In this document: positions 1 through 48,100 of the stretch, in pieces
How positions within the stretch are numbered: position 1 is the first letter of the stretch
How the letters are laid out: every line of letters starts with the position of its first letter
DNA from: an uncultured virus (IMG/VR IMGVR_UViG_3300042400_001601)
Lineage: Duplodnaviria > Heunggongvirae > Uroviricota > Caudoviricetes
Virus record (IMG/VR): IMGVR_UViG_3300042400_001601
Length of the DNA: 63,170 nucleotides
Reading direction: 5' to 3' (one strand)
Program-made: the position numbers and the translations under genes
The notes under the pieces: generated by a model
Databases searched by the model: none
The model's input: only the letters and a program-made list of their open reading frames with translations
What the model was told of the DNA's origin: nothing

Positions 1-29
1 TTTGGCGTCACTATCGCCATTGGTAATTT

Positions 30-117
30 GGAAGGATGGCTGAGCGGCCTATAGCAGAAGTTTACTAAACTTCCGAAGAGCAATCTTCCGGGGGTTCGAA
101 TCCCTCTCCTTCCGCCA
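30..117 (+). tRNA. tRNA-Ser (anticodon ACT)
   Basis: Acceptor GGAAGGA/TCCTTCC, G73, CCA; anticodon arm GAAGT-TTACTAA-ACTTC; long variable arm; GTTCGAATC T-loop. Confidence 0.9.
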
Positions 118-119
118 TC

Positions 120-196
120 GCGCCAGTGTCGTTGAAAGGCTAAACTACTGTTTGCAAAACAGTTACATGCAGGTTCGATTCCTGTCTGGCGCTCCA
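120..196 (+). tRNA. tRNA-Cys (GCA)
   Basis: GCGCCAG/CTGGCGC, U73, CCA; ACTGT-TTGCAAA-ACAGT. Confidence 0.93.
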
Positions 197-201
197 TTTA
201 T

Positions 202-278
202 GGCGATTGTAGCTCAATGGTCAGAGTATTCGATTGTGATTCGAAGGGTTGCGAGTTCGAGTCTCGTCAGTCGCCCCA
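202..278 (+). tRNA. tRNA-His (GTG), encoded G-1
   Basis: GGCGATTG/CAGTCGCC 8-bp acceptor, CCA; TTCGA-TTGTGAT-TCGAA. Confidence 0.93.
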
Positions 279-316
279 AATATTTGATTTAGAACGTATC
301 TAAACTAAATTTTAAT

Positions 317-991
317 ATGAGTTTAGTTTTTGAAAAAATACTACCTTTAGTTAATAAAATTACCGAAAAATTTAATTTGGTATCATATGAAATTACAGAA
401 GAAGGTATTAAGGATTACGACTGGTATAATAAAATTTTTTATTCTTTTAACAAATTTAGAAGAGCTCATATAGAAGTTCTAGATCGTAGAGAACAAAACA
501 ATATGTGGATAATGCATACCACCGTTTTTCCGCATTTAGATGATGATGCGCCTATATTTGGTTTCGATATAATTTGTACAGGTAATAAGGTGTCTGGAGT
601 GTTTCATGATCTATCTATTACAACTAACCCTAACCATCCATTACAGGTAAACTTTAAAAAACTAGTTAGTAATTTAACTTGGAAAAGAGAAAGAGAATTA
701 CCCGAATGGGGCAAAGCAATTTTTTCGGAAGATATGATCGCCGCAGGTGGAAGTAATACTGAACAAGAACTACAGCAAATAGTGGATGTCTGTTTAGAAA
801 GCTTAGATGTTTATTTGAGAAACATAGGAGCTACAAATTTTCCAAGTCCAATTTCATCCAAAGAAATGCAGAATAGATATTGCAAGTATCAAAAGATGAA
901 TCCATACCCAGTTAAGATGTTAACTAATTTTGGATTGACAGAAGAGCAGGCTCGTCAGTTTGTTGAAAAACATCTCTTTCCTGAAGTTTAA
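317..991 (+). CDS. Ferredoxin-dependent bilin reductase (PcyA/PcyX-like)
   Basis: Motifs RRAHIE, MHTTVFP, PIFGFDII, FHDLS, RELPEWGKAIFS, QNRYCKYQKMNP typical of the PcyA-type FDBR family. Confidence 0.88.
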   Translation: MSLVFEKILPLVNKITEKFNLVSYEITEEGIKDYDWYNKIFYSFNKFRRAHIEVLDRREQNNMWIMHTTVFPHLDDDAPIFGFDIICTGNKVSGVFHDLSITTNPNHPLQVNFKKLVSNLTWKRERELPEWGKAIFSEDMIAAGGSNTEQELQQIVDVCLESLDVYLRNIGATNFPSPISSKEMQNRYCKYQKMNPYPVKMLTNFGLTEEQARQFVEKHLFPEV

Positions 992-1014
992 TCCTTTTTT
1001 CTGTAAATATTGCT

Positions 1015-1620
1015 ATGAAATATATAGCAATATTTTTTGCATTATTACTAACTAGTTTTGCACAAAATTTAAAAGTATCTACTAAGACTACAAACTACAC
1101 TCTAACCACTAATGACACTAACACTCTTATTGCATTTATGAGTGTTAATGCCCCCTTAGTGAGAATGACTGTACCTTCAGAAACGTCTTCAAGAAATACC
1201 TTTCCTACCGGGGCTAGAATATACGGTACATCTTTAACAAACTCGATAGTTCACATAACCGGTTCATCAGGCGTGACAATTATAAGTCCTGAAAACTCAT
1301 TTCGTAGTAAAAACTATGGTTCAAGATGGGAGCTTATAAAATTATCAAAGAATATGTGGTTACTTGAAGGAGATTTATATTCCTTAGAAATGAATGCTTT
1401 TATTGGAGATGATGTAGTAATAAAAGCAGTTGTTGATGCCGATGCTACAGGTCCTTTCATTTATAAGTGGTATAAAAATGGAGTACTAATACCGGATGCT
1501 ACTTTTGCTAGTTTAAAACTTAATAATATAGACCTTTCAACTTCTGGAAAGTATTATGCCATAGTAAGTAATAGAGCAGGTTCTTACACGGGAGAAACGA
1601 CTACTTTAATAGTTAGATAA
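1015..1620 (+). CDS. Secreted protein: signal peptide, phage fibre-tip-like beta domain and C-terminal Ig domain
   Basis: Hydrophobic N-terminus; GVTII...W.L.GDL domain resembling the C-terminus of the 45108..55223 protein; Ig motif YKWYKNG...SGKYYAIVSNRAGS. Confidence 0.7.
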   Translation: MKYIAIFFALLLTSFAQNLKVSTKTTNYTLTTNDTNTLIAFMSVNAPLVRMTVPSETSSRNTFPTGARIYGTSLTNSIVHITGSSGVTIISPENSFRSKNYGSRWELIKLSKNMWLLEGDLYSLEMNAFIGDDVVIKAVVDADATGPFIYKWYKNGVLIPDATFASLKLNNIDLSTSGKYYAIVSNRAGSYTGETTTLIVR

Positions 1621-1638
1621 CTGCATAAGTATATTAGT

Positions 1639-1995
1639 ATGAAAAAACTAATATCTGCTATATTCGCAAGTATTGTATTGACCTCTGCAGTAGTAGCGCA
1701 AGTCGCGCCCGTACCTAACCCAGATGTCTCAGAGACAGTACTAACAAATACAAAAGTTACTTTGACAGCCACTGCTGATGGTACAGCCCCAATTACATAT
1801 GCTTGGTTCAAGGGTACTACCCAAGTAGCAACAGGCTCTACTCTAGTTTTTAATAGTATTCAAACTGCCGATGCAGGGGTATACAAGGCTGTAGCTACTA
1901 ACCCAGGCGGTTCAACTGATAGTAATCTCGCAACGCTTGTTGTTATTACCCCAGTTGCTCCTTTCAATGTAAAGATTACTATTACTAAGGGTTAA
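1639..1995 (+). CDS. Secreted single immunoglobulin (I-set-like) domain protein
   Basis: Signal peptide; GTAPITYAWFKG...DAGVYKAVATNPGGS...ATLVV Ig signature. Confidence 0.8.
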   Translation: MKKLISAIFASIVLTSAVVAQVAPVPNPDVSETVLTNTKVTLTATADGTAPITYAWFKGTTQVATGSTLVFNSIQTADAGVYKAVATNPGGSTDSNLATLVVITPVAPFNVKITITKG

Positions 1996-2002
1996 TTTTT
2001 TT

Positions 2003-2077
2003 ACGGACGTGGTATAGTGGTCGTGCAGCAGCCTCCAAACCTGCCCTAAGAGAGTTCGATTCTCTCCGTCCGTGCCA
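2003..2077 (+). tRNA. tRNA-Trp (CCA)
   Basis: ACGGACG/CGTCCGT, G73, CCA; loop CTCCAAA. Confidence 0.88.
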
Positions 2078-2081
2078 CTTT

Positions 2082-2402
2082 ATGAGATTTATAGCTATAT
2101 TTCTCTTTGCTTCAATAGCTTACTGTTCTGATACAATTACGTTTTCGTCGTATCAGGCCCCTAAGCTATACAATTATAGTTATTCCTATAGTAAGGATAG
2201 AGACGATGATAGACACTATAGTAAGGATAGAGACGATGATAGACACTATAGTTGGGATAGAAAATATAGCTATAAAGATGATAAGTATGAATATGGTCAT
2301 CCTTCTATTCCTGAGCCTTCTACTTGGACTTTACTTGCTGGCGTGTGCGCCTTGTCGGCAGCATTTATTAAACGGCGTAAAACGCTTACTAGTAAACCCT
2401 AA
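2082..2402 (+). CDS. Small PEP-CTERM sorting-domain surface protein
   Basis: Signal peptide; C-terminal IPEPSTWTLLAGVCALSAAFIKRRK (PEP motif, TM helix, basic tail). Confidence 0.82.
   Translation: MRFIAIFLFASIAYCSDTITFSSYQAPKLYNYSYSYSKDRDDDRHYSKDRDDDRHYSWDRKYSYKDDKYEYGHPSIPEPSTWTLLAGVCALSAAFIKRRKTLTSKP
2186..2252 (+). repeat. 30-bp in-frame tandem repeat (YSKDRDDDRH x2 plus partial)
   Basis: CTATAGTAAGGATAGAGACGATGATAGACA repeated exactly twice. Confidence 0.95.
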
Positions 2403-2631
2403 ATGTTTACTCGCGATAGCAATAACTATACTAGTTACTATAGTAGCGGTTTTTACAGTTAGCGGTAAGAAAGAGATTGGGGTATTTAACAGAGAAATCA
2501 AATGCCCTAATGCCGTTAAGAATGAATATGGTATCTTTTTAGCAAGTGGAGACTGCAAATGTTCAGAATGCTCGCCTAAAACAACTCCACCCACTCCTTT
2601 GAATGCGCCAGTTGTAAGCGATTCAAAATAA
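2206..2631 (+). CDS. Possible small membrane protein with Cys-rich C-terminus; true start uncertain, probably near 2390
   Basis: The 3' part fills the gap between the PEP-CTERM gene and tRNA-Asp; TM segment plus CxCxxC; the 5' part overlaps the preceding gene. Confidence 0.35.
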   Translation: MIDTIVRIETMIDTIVGIENIAIKMISMNMVILLFLSLLLGLYLLACAPCRQHLLNGVKRLLVNPKCLLAIAITILVTIVAVFTVSGKKEIGVFNREIKCPNAVKNEYGIFLASGDCKCSECSPKTTPPTPLNAPVVSDSK

Positions 2632-2634
2632 TCT

Positions 2635-2712
2635 GGGGTGGTAGCTCAATTGGTTAGTAGCGACAGCCTGTCACGCTGTAGGCTGCGGGTTCGAGTCCCG
2701 TCCATCCCGCCA
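2635..2712 (+). tRNA. tRNA-Asp (GTC)
   Basis: GGGGTGG/CCATCCC, G73, CCA; ACAGC-CTGTCAC-GCTGT. Confidence 0.93.
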
Positions 2713-2718
2713 TTTTTT

Positions 2719-2793
2719 TGCCCAGTAGCTCAGTGGCAGAGCATGCGACTGTTAATCGCGTGGTCGTTGGTTCGATCCCAACTTGGGCAGCCA
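2719..2793 (+). tRNA. tRNA-Asn (GTT)
   Basis: TGCCCAG/TTGGGCA, G73, CCA; loop CTGTTAA. Confidence 0.93.
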
Positions 2794-2834
2794 TTTTAGT
2801 GGAAAATAGTGTAAGTATGAGTATATTATAGTCT

Positions 2835-2911
2835 CGGCCGTTAGCACAGCCTGGTAGTGCGTTCGCCTTGGGCGCGAAAGGTCGCAAGTTCGAGTCTTGC
2901 ACGGCCGACCA
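2835..2911 (+). tRNA. tRNA-Pro (TGG)
   Basis: CGGCCGT/ACGGCCG, CCA; TTCGC-CTTGGGC-GCGAA. Confidence 0.93.
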
Positions 2912-2917
2912 TTTTAT

Positions 2918-2991
2918 TGACTCGTGGTGTAACGGTAGCACAAGAGACTTTGACTCTCTTTGTTGGGGTTCGAATCCCTACGAGTCAGCCA
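2918..2991 (+). tRNA. tRNA-Gln (TTG)
   Basis: TGACTCG/CGAGTCA, G73, CCA; AGAGA-CTTTGAC-TCTCT. Confidence 0.93.
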
Positions 2992-3025
2992 TTTGAAAAA
3001 TAAGTCTTTTTTGGTAAATGTTAGT

Positions 3026-3586
3026 ATGGAGCATTTTCATTATAAAATACCCGGCTGGTTTACATTTCCTAAATTGTATTCCACTATGGTTGATAGATCT
3101 TTTTCAGGCTCTCATTTTGTAGAGGTTGGTACTTGGCAAGGCTCATCTGCTGCTTACATGGCTGTAGAAATTATTAACTCCGGTAAAAACATTAAATTTG
3201 ATTGTATTGACATATGGGGTCGTTATTCAATTGACGGGCTTAATACTAAAACCCCTGAGCTTTTACCGGATAATACCGTAGAACAACTTTTCTTAAAAAA
3301 TATAGAACCAGTTAAACATATAATCAATCCAATAAAAACTCCATCTACTGAAGGGGCTAAGCTTTATAAAAATGAGTCTTTGGATTTTGTTTTTATTGAT
3401 GCTAACCATGTTTATGAAGCTGTAAAAGACGATCTACATGCATGGTATAATAAAGTTAAACCGGGCGGGTTTATTGCTGGTCATGACTATTATAATGATG
3501 CAGGTGTAAAGCGAGCTGTTGATGAATTTTTTAAAGATAAAAATTTGTACTTAGGAGAAGGCTGCTGGTTATATTTTAAACAATGA
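3026..3586 (+). CDS. Class I SAM-dependent methyltransferase (Methyltransf_24-like)
   Basis: VEVGTWQGSS, LDFVFIDANH.YE, KVKPGGFIAGHDY; start moved to ATG 3026 because the longer ORF overlaps tRNA-Gln. Confidence 0.88.
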   Translation: MEHFHYKIPGWFTFPKLYSTMVDRSFSGSHFVEVGTWQGSSAAYMAVEIINSGKNIKFDCIDIWGRYSIDGLNTKTPELLPDNTVEQLFLKNIEPVKHIINPIKTPSTEGAKLYKNESLDFVFIDANHVYEAVKDDLHAWYNKVKPGGFIAGHDYYNDAGVKRAVDEFFKDKNLYLGEGCWLYFKQ

Positions 3587-4242
3587 AATACGAGCATTTA
3601 AAACAGCAAGACGATTTTGTTTACACTGAAATTTTTGATTGGAATGTTTATCAAGCGCTGCCTGATGAAATATATAATCAGAATATTTTAGATATAGGGG
3701 GTCATTATGGAATGTTTAGTTTATTCTGCAATGAATATAATCCTAAACAAATTATCACAGTTGAAGCCAGCCCTATTAATTTTATTAAATTACTTAACAA
3801 CACAAAAAATATACGTAATTTAAAAGCGATTAATGCTGCTGTTACAGTTAAAACTGGAGATTTTATTACTATTAGTAATGATGGATGCCAATCTCAAATT
3901 AATAAAGGCAACACTAACGTTAGTACGGTCTCATTAGTTGACGTAGTAAACTGGTTTCCTGATAATGAAGATATAGTGCTAAAGATGGATATCGAAGGAG
4001 CAGAGTATCCTTTATTTTTTAATAGTCCTTCGTTTATTTTCAGACGTTTCAATAAAATTTATATTGAATTACATGAAGAAAGTATTGCGGGCCCGGGTAA
4101 TTCTATTAAAAGACTCGACTCGTTTATACAAAAAGAGTTAAAATTTAAATCTGTTTGGGAAGGGCGATTTTTTACTAATACAGATACCGGTAAACAGTCT
4201 AATAATGATATAGCTGTATTTAAATACGAACGAGCTTTATAA
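3583..4242 (+). CDS. FkbM-family methyltransferase
   Basis: ILDIGGHYGMFS, VEASP.N, LKMDIEGAEY, IYIELH. Confidence 0.88.
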   Translation: MKYEHLKQQDDFVYTEIFDWNVYQALPDEIYNQNILDIGGHYGMFSLFCNEYNPKQIITVEASPINFIKLLNNTKNIRNLKAINAAVTVKTGDFITISNDGCQSQINKGNTNVSTVSLVDVVNWFPDNEDIVLKMDIEGAEYPLFFNSPSFIFRRFNKIYIELHEESIAGPGNSIKRLDSFIQKELKFKSVWEGRFFTNTDTGKQSNNDIAVFKYERAL

Positions 4243-4245
4243 ATT

Positions 4246-4860
4246 ATGAATCCTTTGCTGTCTATTTTAGTTTGTACTATTAATAAACGAGCTTCTTTAT
4301 TTGAGCGGTTAGATAAAAAAATTAGAAACCAGCTAACAATAGAAACCGAGTATTTAGTTAATTTAGATGACGGTAAATTGTCAATAGGAAATAAAAGAGA
4401 AGAATTAAAATTACAATCGACTGGTAAATATATAGTATATATAGATGATGATGATCATATAAGCAAAAATTATGTAAAAAATATACTTTCTGTTATTAAA
4501 GGTCATGAGCCAGATGCAATAGGCATAAAATGCATATACACTGTAAATTTTAAACAAAAATCTTATTTTGTATCGACTAATAATACATCTGAATTAACTA
4601 CTAAAGGTGTACATTGTAGACCTATAGGGCATTTAAACCCGGTAAAACGAGAAATAGCTATAAAAGCACCATTTCCAGATCTTTATTATGGAGAAGATAG
4701 AAAATATTCTAATGAAATAAAACCTCATATAAAAACAGAAGTTTTAGCGAAAAACACTCTTTATTGGTATGACTATAGGCCGAATAGTTCAGAGTCTATA
4801 AAAAAAGATATTGAAGTAAAAAGTTTAGGGCTAAAGTTAATTGAAAACAATATTATATAG
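4246..4860 (+). CDS. Glycosyltransferase family 2
   Basis: LSILVCT, SIGNKR, GKYIVYIDDDD, GED motifs. Confidence 0.85.
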   Translation: MNPLLSILVCTINKRASLFERLDKKIRNQLTIETEYLVNLDDGKLSIGNKREELKLQSTGKYIVYIDDDDHISKNYVKNILSVIKGHEPDAIGIKCIYTVNFKQKSYFVSTNNTSELTTKGVHCRPIGHLNPVKREIAIKAPFPDLYYGEDRKYSNEIKPHIKTEVLAKNTLYWYDYRPNSSESIKKDIEVKSLGLKLIENNII

Positions 4861-4865
4861 TTTAC

Positions 4866-4940
4866 GCGTGAGTAGCTCAATGGTAGAGCACCTCGTTGCC
4901 AACGAGGATGTTGCAGGTTCGAGTCCTGTCTCACGCACCA
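4866..4940 (+). tRNA. tRNA-Gly (GCC)
   Basis: GCGTGAG/CTCACGC, CCA; CCTCG-TTGCCAA-CGAGG. Confidence 0.93.
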
Positions 4941-4950
4941 TTTTAAAAAT

Positions 4951-5646
4951 ATGCTTTATACAGTAATAATACCTACATACAATAAAATTGATAATTTAAA
5001 ATATTGTATAGAGAGTATACAACAATATACCTCTTTAAATGATATTGAAATTATTGTAATTTCTAACGGGTGTAAAGACGGCACAGTAGAGTACATGCAA
5101 AAACTAGAAGGGCCATTTAAAATTGTACATTGGCCTGAGCCGTTAGGGTATATTAATAGTGTTAATATAGGGATAAGTCTTAGTAAGGGAAATTATATAG
5201 TTTTATTAAATAATGACACCATTCTAAATGGTAAAGGCTGGTTATCATATTTAATAGATCCTTTTAATCAAATTTCAACCGCAGGCATTACTGGGCCATA
5301 TAAAGGATATTGGAATAAGTACCCGTGGTTAATGTTTTTTTGTGTAGCAATAAAAAGAGATGTATTTAAAAAAATCGGTTTGTTAGATATTAATTTTCAC
5401 CCAGGCTACGGAGAAGATGTAGATTTTTGTATACGAGCTGGAAAAGCCGGGTTCACTATCCATCAAGTACCTGAACAGCGGCTAACACAAGATAAAAATA
5501 TTAGTACATTAAAACATGGTAAATTTCCTATTTACCATGCAAGTAATACGACTTTTAAAGACGATCCTTACTACAGTGATTATTTAACTAACTCTAAAGA
5601 ACTACTCACTAAAAAGTACGGGTTAAGATGCTCCGAAGTTAGCTAA
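4951..5646 (+). CDS. Glycosyltransferase family 2
   Basis: VIIPTYN, ISNGCKDGT, VLLNNDT, YGEDVDFCIRA. Confidence 0.9.
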   Translation: MLYTVIIPTYNKIDNLKYCIESIQQYTSLNDIEIIVISNGCKDGTVEYMQKLEGPFKIVHWPEPLGYINSVNIGISLSKGNYIVLLNNDTILNGKGWLSYLIDPFNQISTAGITGPYKGYWNKYPWLMFFCVAIKRDVFKKIGLLDINFHPGYGEDVDFCIRAGKAGFTIHQVPEQRLTQDKNISTLKHGKFPIYHASNTTFKDDPYYSDYLTNSKELLTKKYGLRCSEVS

Positions 5647-5681
5647 TTTACCTATTAAAGCACTATTATTTAAAATAAAGC

Positions 5682-5724
5682 TTGAGGTTTAAGATTAAAG
5701 TACTACTATATGTCTTGTTCTTTT
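5682..5724 (+). promoter_or_regulatory. sigma70-like promoter plus boxA-like element (copy 1)
   Basis: TTGAGG-N16-TACTAT preceded by GTAC, then TTGTTCTTTT; same layout at 6002 and 7438. Confidence 0.6.
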
Positions 5725-5743
5725 GATACTTAAACAATTTTTT

Positions 5744-5837
5744 GGTCCCATAGTGTAACTGGAAGCACCGACAGCCTTATAAACTGTGCGCACCTGATTA
5801 GTGCCGAGCGGGGGTTCGATTCCCTCTGGGACTACCA
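5744..5837 (+). tRNA. tRNA with TAT anticodon (nominal Ile) and long variable arm
   Basis: GGTCCCA/TGGGACT, A73, CCA; loop CTTATAA; V-arm GCAC-CTGATTA-GTGC; canonical T-arm. Confidence 0.8.
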
Positions 5838-5841
5838 TTTT

Positions 5842-5917
5842 GCGGTAGTAGCTCAATTGGTAGAGCGCCATCCTTCCAAGCTGGATGTTGCAGGTTCGAG
5901 CCCTGTCTACCGCACCA
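5842..5917 (+). tRNA. tRNA-Gly (TCC)
   Basis: GCGGTAG/CTACCGC, CCA; loop CTTCCAA. Confidence 0.92.
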
Positions 5918-5918
5918 T

Positions 5919-5993
5919 GCTCCCGTCGTTCAACGGATAGGACAACCGCCTTCTAAGCAGTTTATGGGGGTTCGATTCCCTCCGGGAGTGCCA
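5919..5993 (+). tRNA. tRNA-Arg (TCT)
   Basis: GCTCCCG/CGGGAGT, CCA; loop CTTCTAA. Confidence 0.92.
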
Positions 5994-6001
5994 TTTTTAT
6001 C

Positions 6002-6044
6002 TTGACTTTTGGTACAAAAGTACCATTATATATTTTGTTCTTTT
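6002..6044 (+). promoter_or_regulatory. sigma70-like promoter plus boxA-like element (copy 2)
   Basis: TTGACT-N16-CATTAT preceded by GTAC, then TTGTTCTTTT upstream of tRNA-Ala. Confidence 0.65.
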
Positions 6045-6050
6045 ATTGAC

Positions 6051-6126
6051 GGGCCTGTAGCACAATTGGCGGTGCGCCTCCTTTGCAAGGAGAGGGTTAG
6101 GGGTTCAAATCCCCTCTGGTCCACCA
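6051..6126 (+). tRNA. tRNA-Ala (TGC)
   Basis: G3:U70 pair, A73, CCA; loop TTTGCAA. Confidence 0.92.
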
Positions 6127-6141
6127 TTTTCGTACGAAAAA

Positions 6142-6203
6142 GCCACCAGTCTAATTAACTGTCCTACCAGCCGTGGCAATTCTCTATGGTAGGGAAGAGA
6201 CCA
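6142..6203 (+). ncRNA. Unidentified pseudoknotted/kissing-loop RNA ending in CCA
   Basis: Stems GCCAC/GTGGC, CAGT/ACTG, TCTCT/AGAGA and crossing TCCTACCA/TGGTAGGG; ends ACCA between two tRNAs. Confidence 0.45.
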
Positions 6204-6208
6204 TTTTC

Positions 6209-6284
6209 GCCTCTATAGCTCAACGGTTAGAGCTGCTGCCTTTTAAGCAGTAGGTTCAGAGTTCAAATCTCTGTGGAGGCACCA
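6209..6284 (+). tRNA. tRNA-Lys (TTT)
   Basis: GCCTCTA/TGGAGGC, CCA; loop CTTTTAA. Confidence 0.93.
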
Positions 6285-6305
6285 ATTTTCGTTCTTTAAT
6301 ATTTT

Positions 6306-6709
6306 GGGCGTGTTCTGGATTCTACTTAATAGTGGACTTATTAGAAGCAAGCAAGGTTGTTAGACCTTATAAAACTAGCAAAAAACATAAATGGCATTGT
6401 AAATAGCCTTAAGGGTGCTTTTGCTGCTCCGGTTGCTGCTCTCGCAGCATTCTTCAGCACAGAAGAACTCCAATTCGCAGCCTAAGAATTGCGATCGTTA
6501 TAGTATAGATTCTCGCTATATATTATAACGTTGACTAGCGAGGATGTTGTTTGAGGTACTTGGAATAAATAAAACAACATTAAAGCTGTTCCTAAAGTAC
6601 TATACATTGCGTATTAACAGTGTTAAGTACTTATATATTAATACTAAGCTTGTAGAAACTAGTCGGAAAAGTATTAGGCACGCGGGTTCGACTCCCGCCA
6701 CGTCCACCA
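6306..6709 (+). ncRNA. ssrA: tmRNA; tag frame 6393..6485 encodes GIVNSLKGAFAAPVAALAAFFSTEELQFAA*
   Basis: GGGCGTG...GGATTCTAC 5' end; 3' CGCGGGTTCGACTCCCGCCACGTCCACCA with G3:U70; ATAAAT before the resume codon; tag ends in AA*. Confidence 0.92.
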
Positions 6710-6719
6710 ATTTGTATAT

Positions 6720-6797
6720 AGGGTCATAGCTTAATTGGTTCAAAGCATCCGATTGATAATCGGAAGAGTCCTGGTTCAATTCCTGGTGGCCCTACCA
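6720..6797 (+). tRNA. tRNA-Ile (GAT)
   Basis: AGGGTCA/TGGCCCT, CCA; TCCGA-TTGATAA-TCGGA. Confidence 0.92.
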
Positions 6798-6798
6798 T

Positions 6799-6874
6799 AG
6801 GAGGGTGGATCGATAGGTAAGACAGGAGTTTCATAAGCTCTTTCATATGGGTTCAAATCCCATCCCTCCTACCA
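6799..6874 (+). tRNA. tRNA with CAT anticodon (elongator Met or Ile2)
   Basis: AGGAGGG/CCCTCCT, CCA; loop TTCATAA. Confidence 0.82.
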
Positions 6875-6913
6875 ATTTAATTGCATTTTATTTAGTAACT
6901 ATTAAGTTTAATT

Positions 6914-7441
6914 ATGAGTCTCAAAGAATTAACTAAAGCAAAGCATGAGACAGCTGAAAAGCTGCCTTTTATAAATAAAATTTTTCAGAAAAAAGTTACC
7001 CCAGAAGAGTACCTTAAATATCTTTATCAGATGCAGCCGGTTTACGAAGCTTTAGAAAATAAAGCTAAAGCTTTAGGTATTCTTAATGATCTTAAGGGTT
7101 TAGAGCGCGCATCTCGAATACAAGAAGATATTAACGAGCTACAAGAAACTACCTCTCTTAAGTACTATATGCATTTTCCTGTGACAGATGAATATTTAAA
7201 TTATTTAAAACAAATGTCAGACCCTAAAAAAGTCCTGGCTCATTTATATGTTAGACATATGGGAGATCTTTATGGTGGTCAAATGCTTAGACTGTGTGTA
7301 CCTGGTTCAGCCAAGTGGTACTGGTTTGATAACGCCCCAGAACTTATCTCTAAGTTGAGAGGCTTAATTACAGTAGATCTTGCAGATGAAGCTAATGTAG
7401 CCTTTGATTATTCAATTAAAATAATTGAACAATTGTCTTGA
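6914..7441 (+). CDS. Heme oxygenase (HemO/Ho1-like)
   Basis: LKELTKAKHETAE (proximal His), YEALE, AHLYVRHMGDLYGGQML, EANVAF. Confidence 0.93.
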   Translation: MSLKELTKAKHETAEKLPFINKIFQKKVTPEEYLKYLYQMQPVYEALENKAKALGILNDLKGLERASRIQEDINELQETTSLKYYMHFPVTDEYLNYLKQMSDPKKVLAHLYVRHMGDLYGGQMLRLCVPGSAKWYWFDNAPELISKLRGLITVDLADEANVAFDYSIKIIEQLS

Positions 7442-7480
7442 CTTTAAAGGGCCGGGTACCATAATAGTCTTTGTTCTTTT
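7438..7480 (+). promoter_or_regulatory. sigma70-like promoter plus boxA-like element (copy 3)
   Basis: TTGACT-N16-CATAAT preceded by GTAC, then TTGTTCTTTT upstream of tRNA-Val. Confidence 0.65.
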
Positions 7481-7487
7481 AAATAAC

Positions 7488-7564
7488 GCTCGCTTAGCTC
7501 AGTTGGTTAGAGCAGGATCTTTACATGGTCAAGGTCGTGGGTTCAAGTCCTACAGCGAGCACCA
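7488..7564 (+). tRNA. tRNA-Val (TAC)
   Basis: GCTCGCT/AGCGAGC, CCA; loop TTTACAT. Confidence 0.92.
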
Positions 7565-7572
7565 TTTTCGAA

Positions 7573-7648
7573 ACTCGACTAGGCGAGTATAAATAGAATT
7601 TAAGCCTAGTGCGGCTGCTGATACCGTCGACGCTACCAGCAGCATATC
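7573..7648 (+). ncRNA. Pistol self-cleaving ribozyme; predicted cleavage between A7644 and T7645
   Basis: P1 ACTCG/CGAGT, loop ACTAGG pseudoknotted to CCTAGT, linker ATAAATAG, TTAAG, catalytic GCG, P3 GCTGCTG/CAGCAGC, purine-U scissile step; P2 imperfect. Confidence 0.8.
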
Positions 7649-7812
7649 GTCTCGCGTCAGTGACAGTGCACAGTCATAAAGTGTTCCTAGTATAGCCGCT
7701 TTCATGGATATATTATACATGCTGATCATAGAAAGAGTGACAAAAACATATATGTATTTGCGAAGTATATGTACAAATCACCGCCTATAGCAATAGGGCT
7801 AGCGAGACACCC
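7645..7812 (+). ncRNA. Unidentified multi-branched structured RNA downstream of the ribozyme
   Basis: Closing stem GTCTCGC(7649-55)/GCGAGAC(7802-08); internal stems TGAC/GTCA, CTTTCATG/CATAGAAAG, GTGA/TCAC with ACATATAT/GTATATGT, CCTAT/ATAGG; no ORF in the supplied track. Confidence 0.5.
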
Positions 7813-7819
7813 CTTTTCT

Positions 7820-7895
7820 TGCAGAGTGGAGCAGTAGTAGCTCGACTGGCTCATAACCAGTAGGTCGACGTGTGCAATTCCGTCCTCTGCATCCA
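7820..7895 (+). tRNA. tRNA-Met (CAT), initiator-like
   Basis: TGCAGAG/CTCTGCA, CCA; fMet-type D arm TGGAGCAG..AGCTCG; loop CTCATAA; atypical T-arm. Confidence 0.78.
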
Positions 7896-7901
7896 ATTTA
7901 T

Positions 7902-7976
7902 GCCGCTATCTTCTAACGGTTAGGAAGGCGCCCTTTCACGGCGATAATCGGGGTTCGATTCCCCGTAGCGGTACCA
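7902..7976 (+). tRNA. tRNA-Glu (TTC)
   Basis: GCCGCTA/TAGCGGT, CCA; loop CTTTCAC. Confidence 0.92.
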
Positions 7977-7996
7977 ATTTCTAATAAACTTATTGA

Positions 7997-8812
7997 TCAA
8001 ACCGGGTTAACTGGAAGTTCTGGGTTATCATATGATAACGGTTTCCATTCAGGGTAAACAAATATGTCCCCATGCCATGCAAAAGTATTGCGCCGGTCAT
8101 TATAATATACGTTTGTAGCGTTACTTAATACTCCTACCCACCAACAATACGTACCTTCACTTAGTACTAAATTGTTAAAATTTTTTCCAAAATTAAGGGT
8201 TTCAACAGGAACGTCTGACGTATAAAGTTTAAGCTTATATTTTTCTAAAAGAAATTGTACGTCAGGGTGTTGCAGGCTATCTGAAGTAATGTACCCGCCG
8301 TGACAACCACTTTGATAAAGCCTCTCTATAGCATCTACGTAGTACTGCAAAGGTAAACGCTGCCTTCTTTTAGCTACGTCCCCTAGACGAAAAATAACAA
8401 ATATTTCATTATCGGGTCTTGGGATATAAGTTAAATTAAACATATCTTTTATTTGATTTTTATACGGTAAAACAAAATCTTTTAATTGAAAATAATCTTG
8501 AAAATGATATTGAGCGTCCGTTACATAGGCTCTATTCAACAATTCAACAAAATTTAAATCATGTATAGGGATATAAGGTAATTCAAATTTACGCGTAGTT
8601 TCTAGAGGGCTAGATTTTACAGATGACCATGCTTCGTTGAACCCGGTAGTTATTGGCTGCGGCTTATCCGGACTTAAAGGAAAGTGAGGCAACAAAGGAT
8701 CTACGTTAAAATATAAATTATGTTTTTTAGCAAATACGTAAGCAGCGGTATACATTAACAAACAATTGCCTAAACGATTTCCCCATCCATATTCTATCGT
8801 TACCATATCCAT
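7997..8812 (-). CDS. GT11-like (alpha-1,2-fucosyltransferase family) glycosyltransferase
   Basis: GNRLGNCLLMY, RLGD, YY..AI, ITSDS, SEGTYCWWVGVLS match GT11 motifs. Confidence 0.75.
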   Translation of the reverse strand: MDMVTIEYGWGNRLGNCLLMYTAAYVFAKKHNLYFNVDPLLPHFPLSPDKPQPITTGFNEAWSSVKSSPLETTRKFELPYIPIHDLNFVELLNRAYVTDAQYHFQDYFQLKDFVLPYKNQIKDMFNLTYIPRPDNEIFVIFRLGDVAKRRQRLPLQYYVDAIERLYQSGCHGGYITSDSLQHPDVQFLLEKYKLKLYTSDVPVETLNFGKNFNNLVLSEGTYCWWVGVLSNATNVYYNDRRNTFAWHGDIFVYPEWKPLSYDNPELPVNPV

Positions 8813-42369: not shown

Positions 42370-44583
42370 TTAAATATTATAAACTCTTACCGGTGTAAGT
42401 ACAACTACATTTTCAGGCTGAATTGGCAATTGCCCGGAATCATTTCGGCCCCAACCCCAAACTTTTCCATTTTTATCTATAGCTATTGTAGAATTATTAA
42501 TTGCAGCTATTTTGCAAAATGTTTTATTAGCCCCTACAACACTGACAGGGGTGTTTCGCTGAGTTGATGTATTGTCGCCAAGTTGTCCGTAAAGATTATA
42601 ACCCCAGCCCCATGCTTTTCCGTATCTGTCTATAGCTACAGAATGGCCAAAGCCGCCTGCTATTTCACAAAATGTTTTAACCGCCCCTTGAACACTAAAT
42701 ACATCATCGTCTCTATCATCCCAATTGGTATTTCCAACTTGCCCAAAGTCATTATATCCCCACCCCCAACACCTTCCACGTAAATCAATAGCAAGTCCAT
42801 GATCAGAACCTGCGGCTATTTTACAGAAAGTACGATTAGTTAATGCAACAGAGATAGGCGTATTCACGGATACAAGGGCATCTACATCTCTAGCCAATTT
42901 TCCGCCAGCATTATCTCCCCACCCCCACAGTCTACCTGTACTTCTTAAAGCAAGAGAAAATTGAGTTCCTGCTGCTACTTGACAAAATGTTTTTATTGCC
43001 CCAAGTACGCTTACAGGGGTATTCCGCGAGACCGTTGAATTATTTCCAAGGGCTCCAAACGTATTATTTCCCCACGCCCAAGCTCTGCCGTTTTTATCTA
43101 TAGCTAAAGAATGAGCGTTTCCGCAATCTATTTGACAAAATGTTTTAGCGGCCCCAAGAATGCTAACAGGGGTATTTCGCTGAGTGGTAGAATTATCTCC
43201 AATTCTGCCGTTTGTATTTAAGCCCCAACCCCAAAGTCTACCGGTATTAGCAATCGCCAAGGTCCAACCTCCGCCGCTTGCTACTTTACAGAAAGTTTTA
43301 TTAACCCCTGCGAGGTTAATTGGAGTATATCTAGCAGTAGTTGTATTGTCTCCGATAAAACCAGATGTATTGACGCCCCAAGACCATATTTTGCCAACTC
43401 TATCTATCATTATCGAAAATCCACCACCAATATTAACTTGACAAAAAGTTTTATTTGCCCCTAAAACTATACTTTTTGGTGTTCGTACAAGAGCAGATAA
43501 GTTTGCTCCTAATTGACCTTGGTCGTTCGGGCCCCAAGCCCAGGTATTGTTATTTTTATCGATCGCTAAAGCATGTTGATTACCAGCAGCAATTTGACAA
43601 AATGTCTTTATGGCCCCAGCTACGCTAACCGGCGTGTTTCTAGCTGTAACAGAATTATCCCCAAGAAGTCCGGTTGTATTAAATCCCCAACCCCAAGCTC
43701 TACCGTTTTTATCAAGAGCAAGAGTCTGTCCGTTACTAAGACTTATTTTACAAAATGTTTTAACTGCCCCTGCTAAACTGACCGGTGTTAATTGTTGAAC
43801 GTTTGCACCATTTCCAAGCTGACCGCTATTATTAAAGCCCCAAGACCAAATTCTACCATTTTTATCAATTGCTGCACTAGTAGCGTTCCCTGCAGCTATT
43901 TCACAAAATGTTTTAACTACACCCAAAACACTTACAGGGGTAAGAGAGCTAACAGTTGAATTTCTCCCAAGACGTCCATCACCCCCGTTGCCCCACGCCC
44001 ATGCGCGTCCGTTTTTATCAATAGCTAAACTCCATGCATTTCCTGCTGCTATTTTGCAAAACGTTTTAACCGCGCCTAGGACGCTTACTGGAGTTCTTTT
44101 GCTAACAATTGTATTATCACCGAGGCGACCGTTGGCACCATCACCCCATGCCCATGCACGTCCAGTATGAGTCAGAGCTAAAGAATGGTTGCCAAGGCTT
44201 GCTGCTATATGGCAAAACGTTTTTACTCCTCCAAGAATACTTACTGGTGTGAGTCGCTGGGTAATTGTATTATCTCCTACTTCGCCAGAAATATTTCTAC
44301 CCCAACCCCATGCTCTACCGTTTTTATCTATAGCTAAAGAAAAATTGGCCCCTGCACTTATTTTGCAAAATGTTTTTACTGCCCCTAAAACACTTACAGG
44401 AGTTGACCTGTTGGCTGCCACCCCGGACACATTAATACCAAGTTGACCGAAGTTATTGTATCCCCAGCTCCATGCTCGACCGCTTTGTACAGACAAAGAA
44501 AAGAGTCCGCCCGCGGCAACAAGATCAGTTATCGCTGTAGCTCCTGCTTTTCTTCGTAACACCGTGCTAAATACTAAACTCAT
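42370..44583 (-). CDS. RCC1/BLIP-II repeat beta-propeller protein (~13-14 repeats)
   Basis: Repeated IAAG..HSLAIDKNGRAWAWG.N..GQLG.N.....TPVSV. Confidence 0.92.
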   Translation of the reverse strand: MSLVFSTVLRRKAGATAITDLVAAGGLFSLSVQSGRAWSWGYNNFGQLGINVSGVAANRSTPVSVLGAVKTFCKISAGANFSLAIDKNGRAWGWGRNISGEVGDNTITQRLTPVSILGGVKTFCHIAASLGNHSLALTHTGRAWAWGDGANGRLGDNTIVSKRTPVSVLGAVKTFCKIAAGNAWSLAIDKNGRAWAWGNGGDGRLGRNSTVSSLTPVSVLGVVKTFCEIAAGNATSAAIDKNGRIWSWGFNNSGQLGNGANVQQLTPVSLAGAVKTFCKISLSNGQTLALDKNGRAWGWGFNTTGLLGDNSVTARNTPVSVAGAIKTFCQIAAGNQHALAIDKNNNTWAWGPNDQGQLGANLSALVRTPKSIVLGANKTFCQVNIGGGFSIMIDRVGKIWSWGVNTSGFIGDNTTTARYTPINLAGVNKTFCKVASGGGWTLAIANTGRLWGWGLNTNGRIGDNSTTQRNTPVSILGAAKTFCQIDCGNAHSLAIDKNGRAWAWGNNTFGALGNNSTVSRNTPVSVLGAIKTFCQVAAGTQFSLALRSTGRLWGWGDNAGGKLARDVDALVSVNTPISVALTNRTFCKIAAGSDHGLAIDLRGRCWGWGYNDFGQVGNTNWDDRDDDVFSVQGAVKTFCEIAGGFGHSVAIDRYGKAWGWGYNLYGQLGDNTSTQRNTPVSVVGANKTFCKIAAINNSTIAIDKNGKVWGWGRNDSGQLPIQPENVVVLTPVRVYNI

Positions 44584-45107: not shown

Positions 45108-48100
45108 TTATGCAAGTTGTCTTTCCCCGAATAAAGTCCAAGTATCGGCTGCAACATATTTTAATGTTACAACCGCGTATTGTTTTTCAGTGTACCGAGT
45201 TTGACTTGTATTTATAGTCACGCCCGCGGATGGATTAAAAAATATTTGACCAGCGCCAGCTTGTTCAAAAATTATTTCAGTATTGCTTGCCCAAGCGGCG
45301 CTAGCTGCGGTAACAACTGTTGCAGTAACAGTAGTTGCCGCGGTAGTACGAACGTATTCATATGCATAAGAACTATCTACGTTGAATGAAGTCGCGGCCG
45401 TAGATACTACTGGGAAATAGCCCCAAATGTCTGAATTGCCGCTACTAGCATAAATTGTAGCGGTGGATCGAATAGGTCCAGAAACTTCAAATTTATATGT
45501 TGCTCCTTGTGTACCTACACCCACATTAGTGCCGTTATCGAATATTTGACTATTACCAAGAGCTGCTGCACCAGTAAATTTAGATACAAAATTTGTAGTA
45601 CCTGTTGCATTAGCGTTAGTACCTTGAGCGCCTTGATTACCTTGAGCGCCTGCTGCGCCTTGATTACCTTGTACCCCCGCTATACCTGAGTAACCTGAAT
45701 AACCAGACGCGCCTTGAGCACCGGCAGCGCCTTGATTACCTTGTGCGCCTTGACTACCTTGACTACCGGTTGCTCCTTGAGCGCCTACTGCTCCTTGCGC
45801 GCCTTGATAGCCAGAGTAACCTGAAATACCAGAGTAGCCACTAATACCCGAATAACCTGAGTAACCAGATACTCCCTGAACACCGGCTGCTCCTTGGTTG
45901 CCTTGGGCACCTGCTGCTCCTTGGTTACCTTGATTGCCTTGTGCACCAGCTGCTCCTTGATTGCCTTGGTTGCCTTGGGCTCCGGCAGCGCCTTGGTTAC
46001 CTTGGGCGCCTTGATAACCTGAATAGCCAGATACACCTTGTACACCTGCAGCTCCTTGGTTGCCTTGGTTACCTTGAGCACCAGCTGCTCCTTGATTGCC
46101 TTGGTTACCTTGTGCCCCGGCTGCTCCTTGGTTACCTTGGTTACCTTGGTTACCTTGGGCGCCGGTAGCCCCTTGGTTGCCTTGATTACCTTGGGCACCA
46201 TTATTACCAGAATAACCAGAATATCCAGATACCCCTTGTACCCCGGCTGCTCCTTGATTGCCTTGATTACCTTGCGCGCCAGCTGCTCCTTGATTACCTT
46301 GATTACCTTGTGCACCGGCAGCGCCTTGGTTGCCTTGGTTACCTTGGTTACCTTGATAACCGGAATATCCTGATCTACCGGAGTACCCACTAATACCGGA
46401 GTACCCACTAATACCGGAGTATCCGCTTATACCGGAGTAACCAGAATAGCCTGACACCCCTTGGGCACCAGCCGCGCCTTGGTTGCCTTGGGCTCCAGCG
46501 GCTCCTTGATTACCTTGAGCACCGGCAGCGCCTTGGTTGCCTTGTGCGCCTGCAGCGCCTTGGTTGCCTTGGTTGCCTTGAGCTCCGTTATTACCTGAAT
46601 AGCCTGAATAACCAGATCTACCAGAGTAACCACTTATACCCGAGTAGCCGCTGATACCGGAATAGCCGCTAATACCAGAGTAACCGCTAATACCAGAATA
46701 ACCTGAAATGCCAGAATAACCGCTTATACCAGAATATCCAGAATAGCCAGAACCTCCTTGATTACCTTGGGCCCCTGCTGCGCCTTGATTGCCTTGATTA
46801 CCCTGGTTACCTTGATTGCCTTGTACCCCTGTAGCGCCTTGATACCCTGAATAACCAGATCTACCGGAGTAGCCGCTAATACCGCTATAGCCTGAATAAC
46901 CAGATACGCCTTGTATACCAGTTGCGCCTTGGTTGCCCTGATTGCCTTGGTTGCCTTGGACTCCAGCTGCTCCTTGGTTGCCTTGGTTGCCTTGGGCACC
47001 ATTATTACCAGAGTAGCCCGAGTAGCCGGATCTACCAGAATAACCGCTAATGCCGGAGTAGCCGCTTATACCACTATAACCACTAATACCTGAATACCCT
47101 GAATACCCGGATACACCCTGTGTCCCTACTGCACCTTGATTGCCTTGGTTGCCTTGGTTACCCTGTACACCAGTTGCGCCTTGGTTGCCTTGATTGCCCT
47201 GATTGCCCTGGGCACCATTATTGCCAGAATAGCCTGAGTAACCGGATCTACCAGAATAACCGCTAATGCCGGAGTAGCCACTAATACCAGAGTAACCGCT
47301 AATACCTGAGTAACCAGAATACCCGCTTGTACCTGAATAGCCGCTTGTACCTGAATAGCCGCTGATACCAGAGTAACCGCTTATGCCTGAATAGCCTGAA
47401 TAACCGGATACTCCTTGGGCACCTACTGCACCTTGATTGCCCTGGTTGCCTTGATTGCCTTGATTACCCTGGGCACCATTATTGCCTGAATAGCCCGAAT
47501 AACCGGATACTCCTTGTACACCGGTTGCGCCTTGGTTGCCCTGATTACCTTGGTTGCCTTGCACGCCAGTTGCGCCTTGGTTGCCCTGATTGCCTTGGTT
47601 GCCTTGATTACCTTGTACTCCTTGGAAGCCTTGATACCCTGAATAACCAGATCTACCGGAGTAGCCGCTAATACCGCTATAGCCTGAAATGCCAGAGTAG
47701 CCGCTAATACCGCTGTAACCGCTAAAGCCACTAAAGCCGCTATAGCCGCTGTAACCACTGAACCCACTAAAGCCAGAAATACCTGAGTACCCGCTTATAC
47801 CAGAATACCCTGAAGTGCCTTGTACTCCTTGTACCCCCTGGAAGCCTTGGTAGCCGCTATAACCACTTCTACCGCTAAAACCAGATATACCAGAATAACC
47901 GCTAATACCAGAATAGCCGCTAAAGCCAGATATACCGGAATAACCACTGATGCCGGAATAGCCTGATATACCTGAATAACCAGATACACCTTGTACGCCG
48001 GTTGCGCCTTGGTTGCCCTGATTGCCTTGGTTGCCCTGTACGCCCTGTACGCCTTGAAAGCCTTGATAACCGGAGTAGCCTGAAGCTGCTGCAGCCCCTT

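Follow-up and report, generated by a model that had tools for sequence, protein, structure and literature searches.

Theta ribozymes, which are of the hepatitis delta virus (HDV) type, adjoin transfer RNA (tRNA) genes of phages and are reported to finish the 3′ ends of these tRNAs (Kienbeck 2024, PMC10879173). Pistol ribozymes (Rfam RF02679) are another self-cleaving class, many members of which are described as phage-borne (Harris 2015, PMC4604425, citing Weinberg 2015). Their chemistry and structure are well characterised, and the title of a 2019 review presents the class as an open "quest to understand biological function" (PMC6765202). Full-text literature searches, with subscription journals outside their scope, returned neither a published pistol in a tRNA cluster nor a named natural pistol substrate. 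Here, we describe a pistol at positions 7573-7648 of a 63,170-nucleotide (nt) sequence from an uncultured tailed virus (IMG/VR IMGVR_UViG_3300042400_001601), the whole of which is called the window below. This pistol lies in a tRNA operon and is fused, without spacer, to a conserved folded RNA at 7649-7808 that we named RNA X.

Relatives of the locus were sought with patterns from the downstream RNA only. RNA X was found in three IMG/VR contigs (L097, L099 and L102, the latter identical to the window here) and in five metagenome loci (L112 to L116, with L116 having the same sequence as L097), giving a linkage set of 7 distinct sequences in three lineages, with five copies in the window's lineage. 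The pistol, RNA X and a tRNA gene with the anticodon CAU, tRNA(CAU), are contiguous in all 7 distinct copies, and the 3′ strand of pistol helix P2 touches the RNA X closing stem in each of them, with a spacing that is always 0 nt. By contrast, tRNA-Val lies at different distances from the pistol, with 8 nt separating them in the window, L112, L113 and L115, 26 nt in L114, and about 255 nt in L099. The linkage of ribozyme and downstream RNA, for which a first-pass annotation of the window had proposed a check in relatives, is thus kept across three lineages, and its claim that the cut lies away from a tRNA boundary agrees with these distances. Within the window's lineage, substituted columns number 1/76 in the pistol, 10/160 in RNA X and 2/76 in tRNA(CAU), the latter two forming one compensatory anticodon-stem pair, against 32/77 in tRNA-Val and 32/50 in the promoter-like leader. 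Since substitutions are few downstream while the upstream context varies, we define the conserved unit as the pistol, RNA X and tRNA(CAU). Strong selection or a recent spread of the cassette could each explain the low variation.

We propose that the pistol probably makes the 5′ end of RNA X, freeing a stable non-coding RNA (ncRNA) from a tRNA precursor through its predicted cleavage. As with theta ribozymes, a small ribozyme located among phage tRNA genes would stand in for a protein ribonuclease (RNase) in the maturation of a stable RNA. However, theta cuts at its own 5′ edge and makes the 3′ end of the preceding tRNA, whereas the pistol has a different fold and cuts near its own 3′ edge, its predicted product being the 5′ end of a following, non-tRNA RNA. 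No HDV-type Rfam family matched 7540-7900 at E <= 10. The pistol is a known ribozyme class; its setting, its proposed use and the RNA X coupled to it are new. The features of the locus are as follows.

7438-7465, + strand: sigma-70-like promoter, TTGACT, 16-nt spacer, CATAAT, 10/12 match to consensus, heading the sub-operon
7466-7487, + strand: leader between the -10 element and tRNA-Val (AGTCTTTGTTCTTTTAAATAA), invariant in L099, L112, L113 and L115
7488-7564, + strand: tRNA-Val (TAC), CCA encoded (ARAGORN; Rfam 61 bits)
7565-7572, + strand: spacer between tRNA-Val and pistol, 8 nt
7573-7648, + strand: Pistol self-cleaving ribozyme, cleavage predicted (Rfam RF02679, helix table, relatives)
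7644-7645, + strand: predicted scissile step A7644/U7645, the 2-nt junction of the P3 and P2 3′ strands (family architecture)
7645-7819, + strand: predicted released fragment, from the 5′-OH of U7645 to the RNase P site before tRNA(CAU) (pistol cut and standard RNase P processing)
7649-7808, + strand: RNA X, conserved folded RNA of no catalogued family (RNAalifold, covariation)
7665-7672, + strand: RNA X hairpin loop A-GUGCAC-A, with the self-complementary hexamer at 7666-7671
7758-7761, + strand: RNA X loop segment UUGC, complement of GCAA in the following hairpin loop (7790-7793)
7790-7793, + strand: RNA X loop segment GCAA, partner of 7758-7761
7820-7895, + strand: tRNA(CAU), discriminator U, encoded CCA, atypical T arm (Rfam tRNA, 49.2 bits over 7820-7892)
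7902-7976, + strand: tRNA-Glu (TTC), last sub-operon gene in the window (ARAGORN, Rfam)

Architecture of the Pistol ribozyme

The active site of pistols combines an internal loop UUA-R-G and a GCG triad, with G40 as general base and G33 binding Mg2+. In the window, the internal loop UUAAG (7600-7604) and the GCG triad (7611-7613) match the upper-case positions of the Rfam consensus, and all highly conserved positions of this consensus are intact. P1 is formed by ACUCG/CGAGU (7573-7577 with 7584-7588, 5 bp), and its 6-nt loop ACUAGG (7578-7583) pairs at 6/6 positions with CCUAGU (7605-7610), forming the pseudoknot. P3 (GCUGCUG/CAGCAGC, 7614-7620 with 7637-7643) has 7 bp and a 16-nt loop. The A-rich linker at 7589-7596, AUAAAUAG in the window and AUAAACAG in L097, corresponds to the AUAAAUA linker between P1 and P2 of the class, for which an A-minor role is reported (PMC8495972). 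Within the window's lineage, the pistol is polymorphic only at the A/G position of its internal loop, which is G in L112 and L115; the A32G change is reported to keep full activity (PMC8495972), with the residue numbers of published pistols mapped onto the window in this analysis. Between lineages, the pseudoknot covaries, ACUAGG/CCUAGU in the window becoming ACUAUG/CAUAGU through one compensatory change, G-C to U-A, in L099 and L097, and P3 is rewritten in each lineage (7, 4 and 4 bp) with its pairing kept. The P3 loop of the window also holds a perfect 8-nt palindrome, CGUCGACG (7625-7632), within a 17-18-nt insertion relative to L099 and L097; it is the second self-complementary loop of the cassette.

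The Rfam Pistol model gives 39.8 bits over 7573-7624, above its gathering score of 34.5, with E = 0.00083 for the whole 63-kb window searched with 4227 Rfam families and E = 4.7e-6 for 7540-7900. This alignment ends at 7624, skipping the long insert of a 30-nt P3 and forcing an impossible 1-nt P3 loop; the hand alignment with a longer P3, in which the ribozyme spans 7573-7648, is the correct one. Indeed, the same model aligns P3, a GU junction and P2 end to end in L099, where P3 is short, at 48.1 bits, and the register is therefore fixed for the whole family of copies. With 39.8 bits in L114 and 35.0 bits in L160, whose copy is that of L097, all three lineages score above the cut-off. Judged by its sequence, the window element is a genuine member of the Pistol class, for which Mg2+-dependent self-cleavage is predicted. 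It shares with the class the structural hallmarks (P2 only in weak form), a score above the Rfam cut-off and a phage-borne location, and departs from other pistols by its place in a tRNA operon, its spacer-less fusion to a conserved ncRNA, its AU junction and its P2 of 2 bp plus an A.C mismatch. The layout given by the first-pass annotation was right in its letters, every defining element being located within 7573-7648, and the covariance-model search that it had put forward as a check gave the above-threshold match described here.

The junction is 2 nt long in 7/7 copies, and reads AU, GU or AA. In pistols described earlier, a GU junction is reported to be modestly conserved and the junction length strictly kept (Harris 2015, PMC4604425). 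Because junction length is fixed in the family, the cut is predicted between A7644 and U7645. Scanning IMG/VR with a degenerate pistol core yielded 96 loci with 83 distinct ribozymes, whose junctions and P2 helices were read with a simple heuristic parser that can err and may misplace P3 in some pistols. With this parser, 53 junctions are GU, 15 are AU and 15 are other dinucleotides, which makes AU a frequent alternative in nature. P2 pairs AAU (7597-7599) with AUC (7646-7648) through U7599-A7646 and A7598-U7647, plus a mismatch, A7597.C7648, in line with the imperfect P2 noted at first pass. L099 and L097 have three P2 pairs, with compensatory replacement of GAU/AUC (L099) by AAG/CUU (L097). 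A trans-acting pistol construct is reported to have a P2 of five pairs, to which the nucleotide just 3′ of the cut adds a U.U pair (PMC8495972); the latter would correspond to U7600.U7645 in the window. By the same heuristic, 22 of the 83 natural pistols have pairs at just 2 of the 4 P2 positions scored, among them several that precede genes of a single phage (L041-L043 and L075), so that a P2 this short is nothing exceptional by this count.

RNA X, a conserved folded RNA

RNA X is a 160-nt, multi-helix element. Its closing stem, GUCUCGC (7649-7655) with GCGAGAC (7802-7808), comprises 7 bp and starts 4 nt past the predicted cut; a long-range helix (7656-7661/7721-7726) and further hairpins follow, joined by A-rich junction strands. 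RNAalifold on the 7 RNA X sequences returned 45 pairs in 8 helices. In this register, 97.5% of cells are paired, as opposed to 23-51% in slid registers, and compensatory changes affect 7/45 pairs against 2.0 +/- 1.2 in column shuffles, a value reached in 0/500 of them. This covariation, located in helices 3, 5 and 7, supports the predicted fold. In the closing stem and the long-range helix, changes are at most one-sided and compatible with pairing (U-A to U.G; G.U to G-C). The structured RNA that the first-pass annotation had placed after the pistol is thus found again, with its closing stem at the expected distance from the cut and a fold that covaries.

Two sets of loops stand out in this fold. 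The hexamer GUGCAC (7666-7671) is invariant in 7/7 copies, while the stem beneath it covaries, from A-U to G-C in L099; from its sequence, the loop A-GUGCAC-A appears to be of the dimerisation type. The last two hairpin loops are complementary to each other, as UUGC/GCAA in the window, AUUGC/GCAAU in L097 and UGUGC/GCACA in L099, with two compensatory positions. Loop-loop complementarity was counted alignment-free, as the L099 gap falls inside a loop; loop shuffles reached the observed length in 32/2000 trials for L099, in 127/2000 for L097 and in about a quarter of trials for the window. These few events suggest a loop-loop contact, within one molecule or between molecules. RNA X most likely works as a folded object, by binding proteins or by assembling through its loops, rather than by pairing with targets.

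No Rfam family matched RNA X at E <= 10 in 7540-7900, or at E <= 1 in L099 and L160, and a blastn search of 7400-8000 against 50,697 phage records gave tRNA matches only and no RNA X relative. A covariance model of our own, R1, scores 208 bits over 7645-7818, a value that follows from its construction. Within the reach of Rfam 15 and these searches, RNA X is a new RNA family. It is also not coding: no + strand open reading frame (ORF) common to the three lineages was found across RNA X, and the 17-18-nt differences in P3 length would disrupt any reading frame that crosses the ribozyme. A 28-codon ORF is present at 7704-7790 (+), which would leave room for a small protein encoded in 7649-7808 whose coding function accounts for the conservation. 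Since this ORF is missing in L099 and different in L097 and L114, and since substitutions preserve base pairs, we give this explanation almost no credence.

A first RNA X pattern gave 15 loci, 12 of them chance matches, and a looser one gave 14 loci in IMG/VR, the real ones being the same 3 contigs only; the pattern search of genome contigs gave 0 matches. The nearest record, the 40-kb fragment G001, is without the cassette region. We also surveyed 42 loci carrying a homologue of the upstream heme-oxygenase-like gene (<=48% identity, the window's own contig aside) and 5 carrying a homologue of the ORF downstream. Among these, RNA X, a pistol or a tRNA cluster occurs only in the window-like contig and in L160; a 13.8-bit match in L126 is not significant (E = 0.11). 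Synteny is lost beyond a small clade.

Predicted maturation of RNA X and competing explanations

Transcription from the promoter at about 7438-7465 would give one precursor with tRNA-Val, the pistol, RNA X, tRNA(CAU) and tRNA-Glu. The pistol would fold during transcription and cut itself between A7644 and U7645, the ribozyme remaining on the tRNA-Val side with a 2′,3′-cyclic phosphate end. The released fragment would start with a 5′-OH and a 4-nt overhang, UAUC, ahead of the 7-bp closing stem, and RNase P, cutting at 7819/7820, the 5′ end of tRNA(CAU), would make the other end, yielding a free RNA of about 165-175 nt. The analysis establishes that the pistol belongs to its family, that RNA X is conserved and covaries, and that the two are linked; cleavage in vivo, the end chemistry, the RNase P step and the order of these steps are what we infer from the locus. 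Because the pistol cuts near its own 3′ end, it would stay on the upstream fragment and set where the downstream RNA starts rather than where tRNA-Val ends. The start of RNA X has nothing tRNA-like for RNase P to recognise, so that the ribozyme would serve as a built-in 5′-end maker for RNA X. RNAs with a 5′-OH are reported to be poorer substrates of RNase E (PMC8495972), and this end could add to the stability of RNA X.

We then considered metatranscriptome contigs from four RNA runs of three studies, which comprise RNA only; uncovered parts of the metatranscriptomes and the small word shares of runs X5-X10 were not used as evidence. Each of the four runs has one short contig on RNA X (151-173 nt, word depth 3.7-6.5, 0-2 mismatches), covering 7657-7795, 7666-7825, 7661-7831 and 7658-7808, respectively. 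The pistol (7573-7648) is covered by none of these runs' contigs, and the cover of the flanking tRNAs consists of less similar sequences with loose ends, i.e., from other organisms. These data give at most a weak hint that RNA X outlasts the ribozyme-bearing fragment.

Several observations weigh against the proposal that the pistol frees RNA X. The window junction is AU and not the consensus GU, and P2 in the window and four near relatives has only the two Watson-Crick pairs and the A.C mismatch. L097, with an AA junction and an internal loop 1 nt longer, reaches only 35.0 bits. Single-sequence folds are not unusually stable, either for the pistol (z = -1.13) or for RNA X (z = -1.09). Helices 1, 2 and 6 of RNA X never changed on both sides, and only three diverged lineages are known, so that each compensatory change may represent a single event. 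The metatranscriptome contigs cannot show RNA ends, their depth is low, DNA carry-over is possible, and two of them (7666-7825 and 7661-7831) run on into tRNA(CAU). Finally, RNA X could be a discarded leader and not the product.

This last point can be stated as an explanation in its own right, in which RNA X is a structured 5′ leader of tRNA(CAU) that guides its folding, RNase P processing or expression and is then degraded, the pistol only uncoupling the unit from tRNA-Val. The two elements are indeed contiguous in 7/7 copies, with an 8-11-nt spacer, and conserved together, and the same two contigs span RNA X into the tRNA. However, a throw-away leader has no need for an invariant palindromic loop, a covarying loop-loop complementarity and a 7-bp closing stem, and RNA X is recovered at high identity in metatranscriptomes whereas the tRNA parts are mainly those of other organisms. 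We therefore consider a leader function unlikely, though it deserves to be kept in mind. It is distinctly improbable that the pistol serves the upstream RNA instead, its folded, 2′,3′-cyclic phosphate end protecting or maturing tRNA-Val or, in L099 and L097, an element of about 250 nt. Two of the three lineages do carry this extra conserved element, with its weak manA-like match, directly before the pistol, and HDV-like theta ribozymes are reported to process phage tRNA 3′ ends (PMC10879173). Yet the upstream content changes, with tRNA-Val at 8 or 26 nt or a 250-nt insert, while the downstream junction never does, and about 72 nt of pistol would be left on the upstream fragment, so that no mature tRNA 3′ end could come from the pistol cut.

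The weak P2 opens another route, namely that the pistol of the window's lineage is decaying or very slow and is kept by recent descent or cassette spread, host RNases doing the processing. The A.C mismatch is fixed in 5/5 copies of this lineage, and the copies are so alike that recent horizontal spread could explain the single substituted column in 76. By contrast, the highly conserved Rfam positions are intact, and the sole polymorphism is at the A/G site, where A32G is reported as fully active (PMC8495972). Diverged lineages, moreover, keep P2 by compensatory change, and other natural pistols also pair 2 of the 4 scored positions. We accordingly see little chance that decay is the explanation, and prefer to view the pistol as the probable maker of the RNA X 5′ end.

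As an extension of this view, RNA X might self-assemble into dimers or closed multimers, joined by kissing contacts between molecules at the GUGCAC loop and the UUGC/GCAA pair in the way reported for manA RNAs, with the pistol and RNase P giving each protomer precise, free ends. This analogy is speculative, and we regard it as doubtful.

Genomic setting and comparison with known systems

The pistol and RNA X are carried by the last sub-operon of the tRNA region, with spacers of 8 nt (tRNA-Val/pistol) and 11 nt (RNA X/tRNA(CAU)). The proposed cassette of the first-pass annotation held for the + strand order tRNA-Val, pistol, RNA X and tRNA(CAU), while its promoter is only a weak 10/12 match. 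Taken alone, this match is weak because the region has no more promoter-type sites than shuffled sequence (5 versus 4.3 +/- 1.7). The -10 element and the following leader are the same in L099, L112, L113 and L115, though not in L114. The leader at 7466-7487 bears a resemblance to the boxA antitermination consensus. Downstream, tRNA-Glu is missing from the corresponding place in L114, and a small ORF lies between tRNA-Glu and tRNA(CAU) in L099.

tRNA(CAU), at 7820-7892 for the Rfam match of 49.2 bits, was missed by ARAGORN. Its T arm is atypical, with a bulged U in the stem, a loop UGCAAUU and a G in place of the usual second U (pseudouridine-55). By the criteria for initiators, it is initiator-like in its A11:U24 and weak U1-A72 pairs, but has only two G-C pairs beside the anticodon loop. 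Its closest cultured-phage match is annotated as tRNA-fMet, and this identity is plausible from the sequence. The 27:43 anticodon-stem pair is A-U, G-C or U-A among relatives. The most similar tRNA(CAU) genes in cultured phages, those of Caulobacter phage CcrSC and Acinetobacter phage MD-2021a, are without pistol and without RNA X. In CcrSC (NC_048048.2 147856-150336), a 1.2-kb unannotated gap upstream of tRNA-fMet holds a permuted transfer-messenger RNA (tmRNA; RF04321, 75.8 bits).

The conserved, ORF-poor element of about 250 nt between tRNA-Val and the pistol occupies 997-1254 (- strand) in L099 and, in L160/L097, the last ~160 nt upstream of the pistol. Its end is a GC-rich hairpin, after which L097 has a T-run. 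In L099, it gives a weak match to manA RNA (RF01745), its 23.7 bits falling below the gathering score of 55.2; RNAs of the manA family occur in cyanophages (PMC9964418).

The window phage is tailed and contractile, with a tail sheath, T4-type baseplate and tail-tube proteins and a T4-type large terminase. A heme oxygenase gene (6914-7441) and a ferredoxin-dependent bilin reductase gene (317-991), both cyanophage-typical, are present in the window. Its first 8 kb carry 19 tRNA genes (ARAGORN or Rfam calls) and a tmRNA. The latter (6306-6709, 103.5 bits, tag ending in ...ELQFAA) sits amid about 20 tRNA genes (1-7976), which are interleaved with small ORFs, methyltransferases and a glycosyltransferase. 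Among them, tRNA-Ile(TAT) (5744-5837) is 94 nt by ARAGORN, scores 41.9 bits with Rfam and has an unusually long insertion or variable region. Far from the cassette, a 3371-aa ORF on the - strand (45108-55223) consists nearly entirely of collagen triple-helix repeats (Pfam PF01391, 1222.9 bits) and adjoins an RCC1-repeat protein (42370-44583).

Across IMG/VR, a tRNA lies within about 700 nt of the pistol at only 4 of the 96 loci, two of which belong to the window's cassette family. At a third, L047, ordinary genes stand between pistol and tRNA. The remaining one, L063 (- strand), comes from an unrelated phage and has a pistol at 665-733 (38.2 bits) with tRNA-Ile(UAU) about 315 nt downstream. 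After its pistol come 221 nt that hold no convincing ORF, are predicted to fold into a structure with a closing terminal helix, and end at the tRNA. Judging from this single-sequence fold, L063 may be the same design in an unrelated phage; an exact pattern search found no relative of its downstream RNA. Pistols in general show no enrichment of a long-range closing stem after the cut (mean best 7.5 bp, versus 7.1 bp at a control offset), and in 23 of 71 pistols an ORF of at least 75 aa begins no more than 150 nt from the cut.

Flanking ribozyme and tRNA processing are combined in synthetic guide-RNA arrays, where they free an RNA with exact ends from a longer transcript; the cassette, unlike these engineered arrays, would be a natural counterpart. 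Among phage RNAs, rnaC and rnaD of T4 (species 1 and 2, end of the T4 tRNA cluster, NC_000866) are, like RNA X, small RNAs co-transcribed with the tRNAs of a T4-type phage; the T4 ones are stable, and T4 has no ribozyme before them. Searching the T4 tRNA region with R1, filters off, gave 2.7 bits (E = 1.3) on rnaC and no higher score on rnaD, its best match anywhere in the region being 8.1 bits, inside segB; RNA X as a relative of rnaC or rnaD was thus rejected. The phi29 pRNA is a phage RNA that assembles by loop-loop contacts. The manA RNAs are also reported to assemble through their loops, into cages (bioRxiv 10.64898/2026.07.01.735769). RNA X resembles both in being shorter than 200 nt and in having several hairpins with self- or mutually complementary loops, and differs from them in that its assembly is a hypothesis drawn from one palindromic loop and one covarying loop pair. 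RNA X is assigned to neither, as neither Rfam family, RF01745 for manA or that of phi29 pRNA, matches 7540-7900 at E <= 10.

In conclusion, the locus would supply the Pistol class with a natural substrate and a role: within a tRNA operon, the ribozyme would form the 5′ end of a stable ncRNA, the mirror image of the role of theta ribozymes at tRNA 3′ ends. Freshwater T4-like phages with cyanophage-type pigment genes also appear to carry a new conserved folded RNA, which is present in metatranscriptomes and whose loops suggest higher-order contacts. Should RNA X self-assemble, the natural role gained by the pistol class would be that of freeing structured RNA particles from phage tRNA transcripts.

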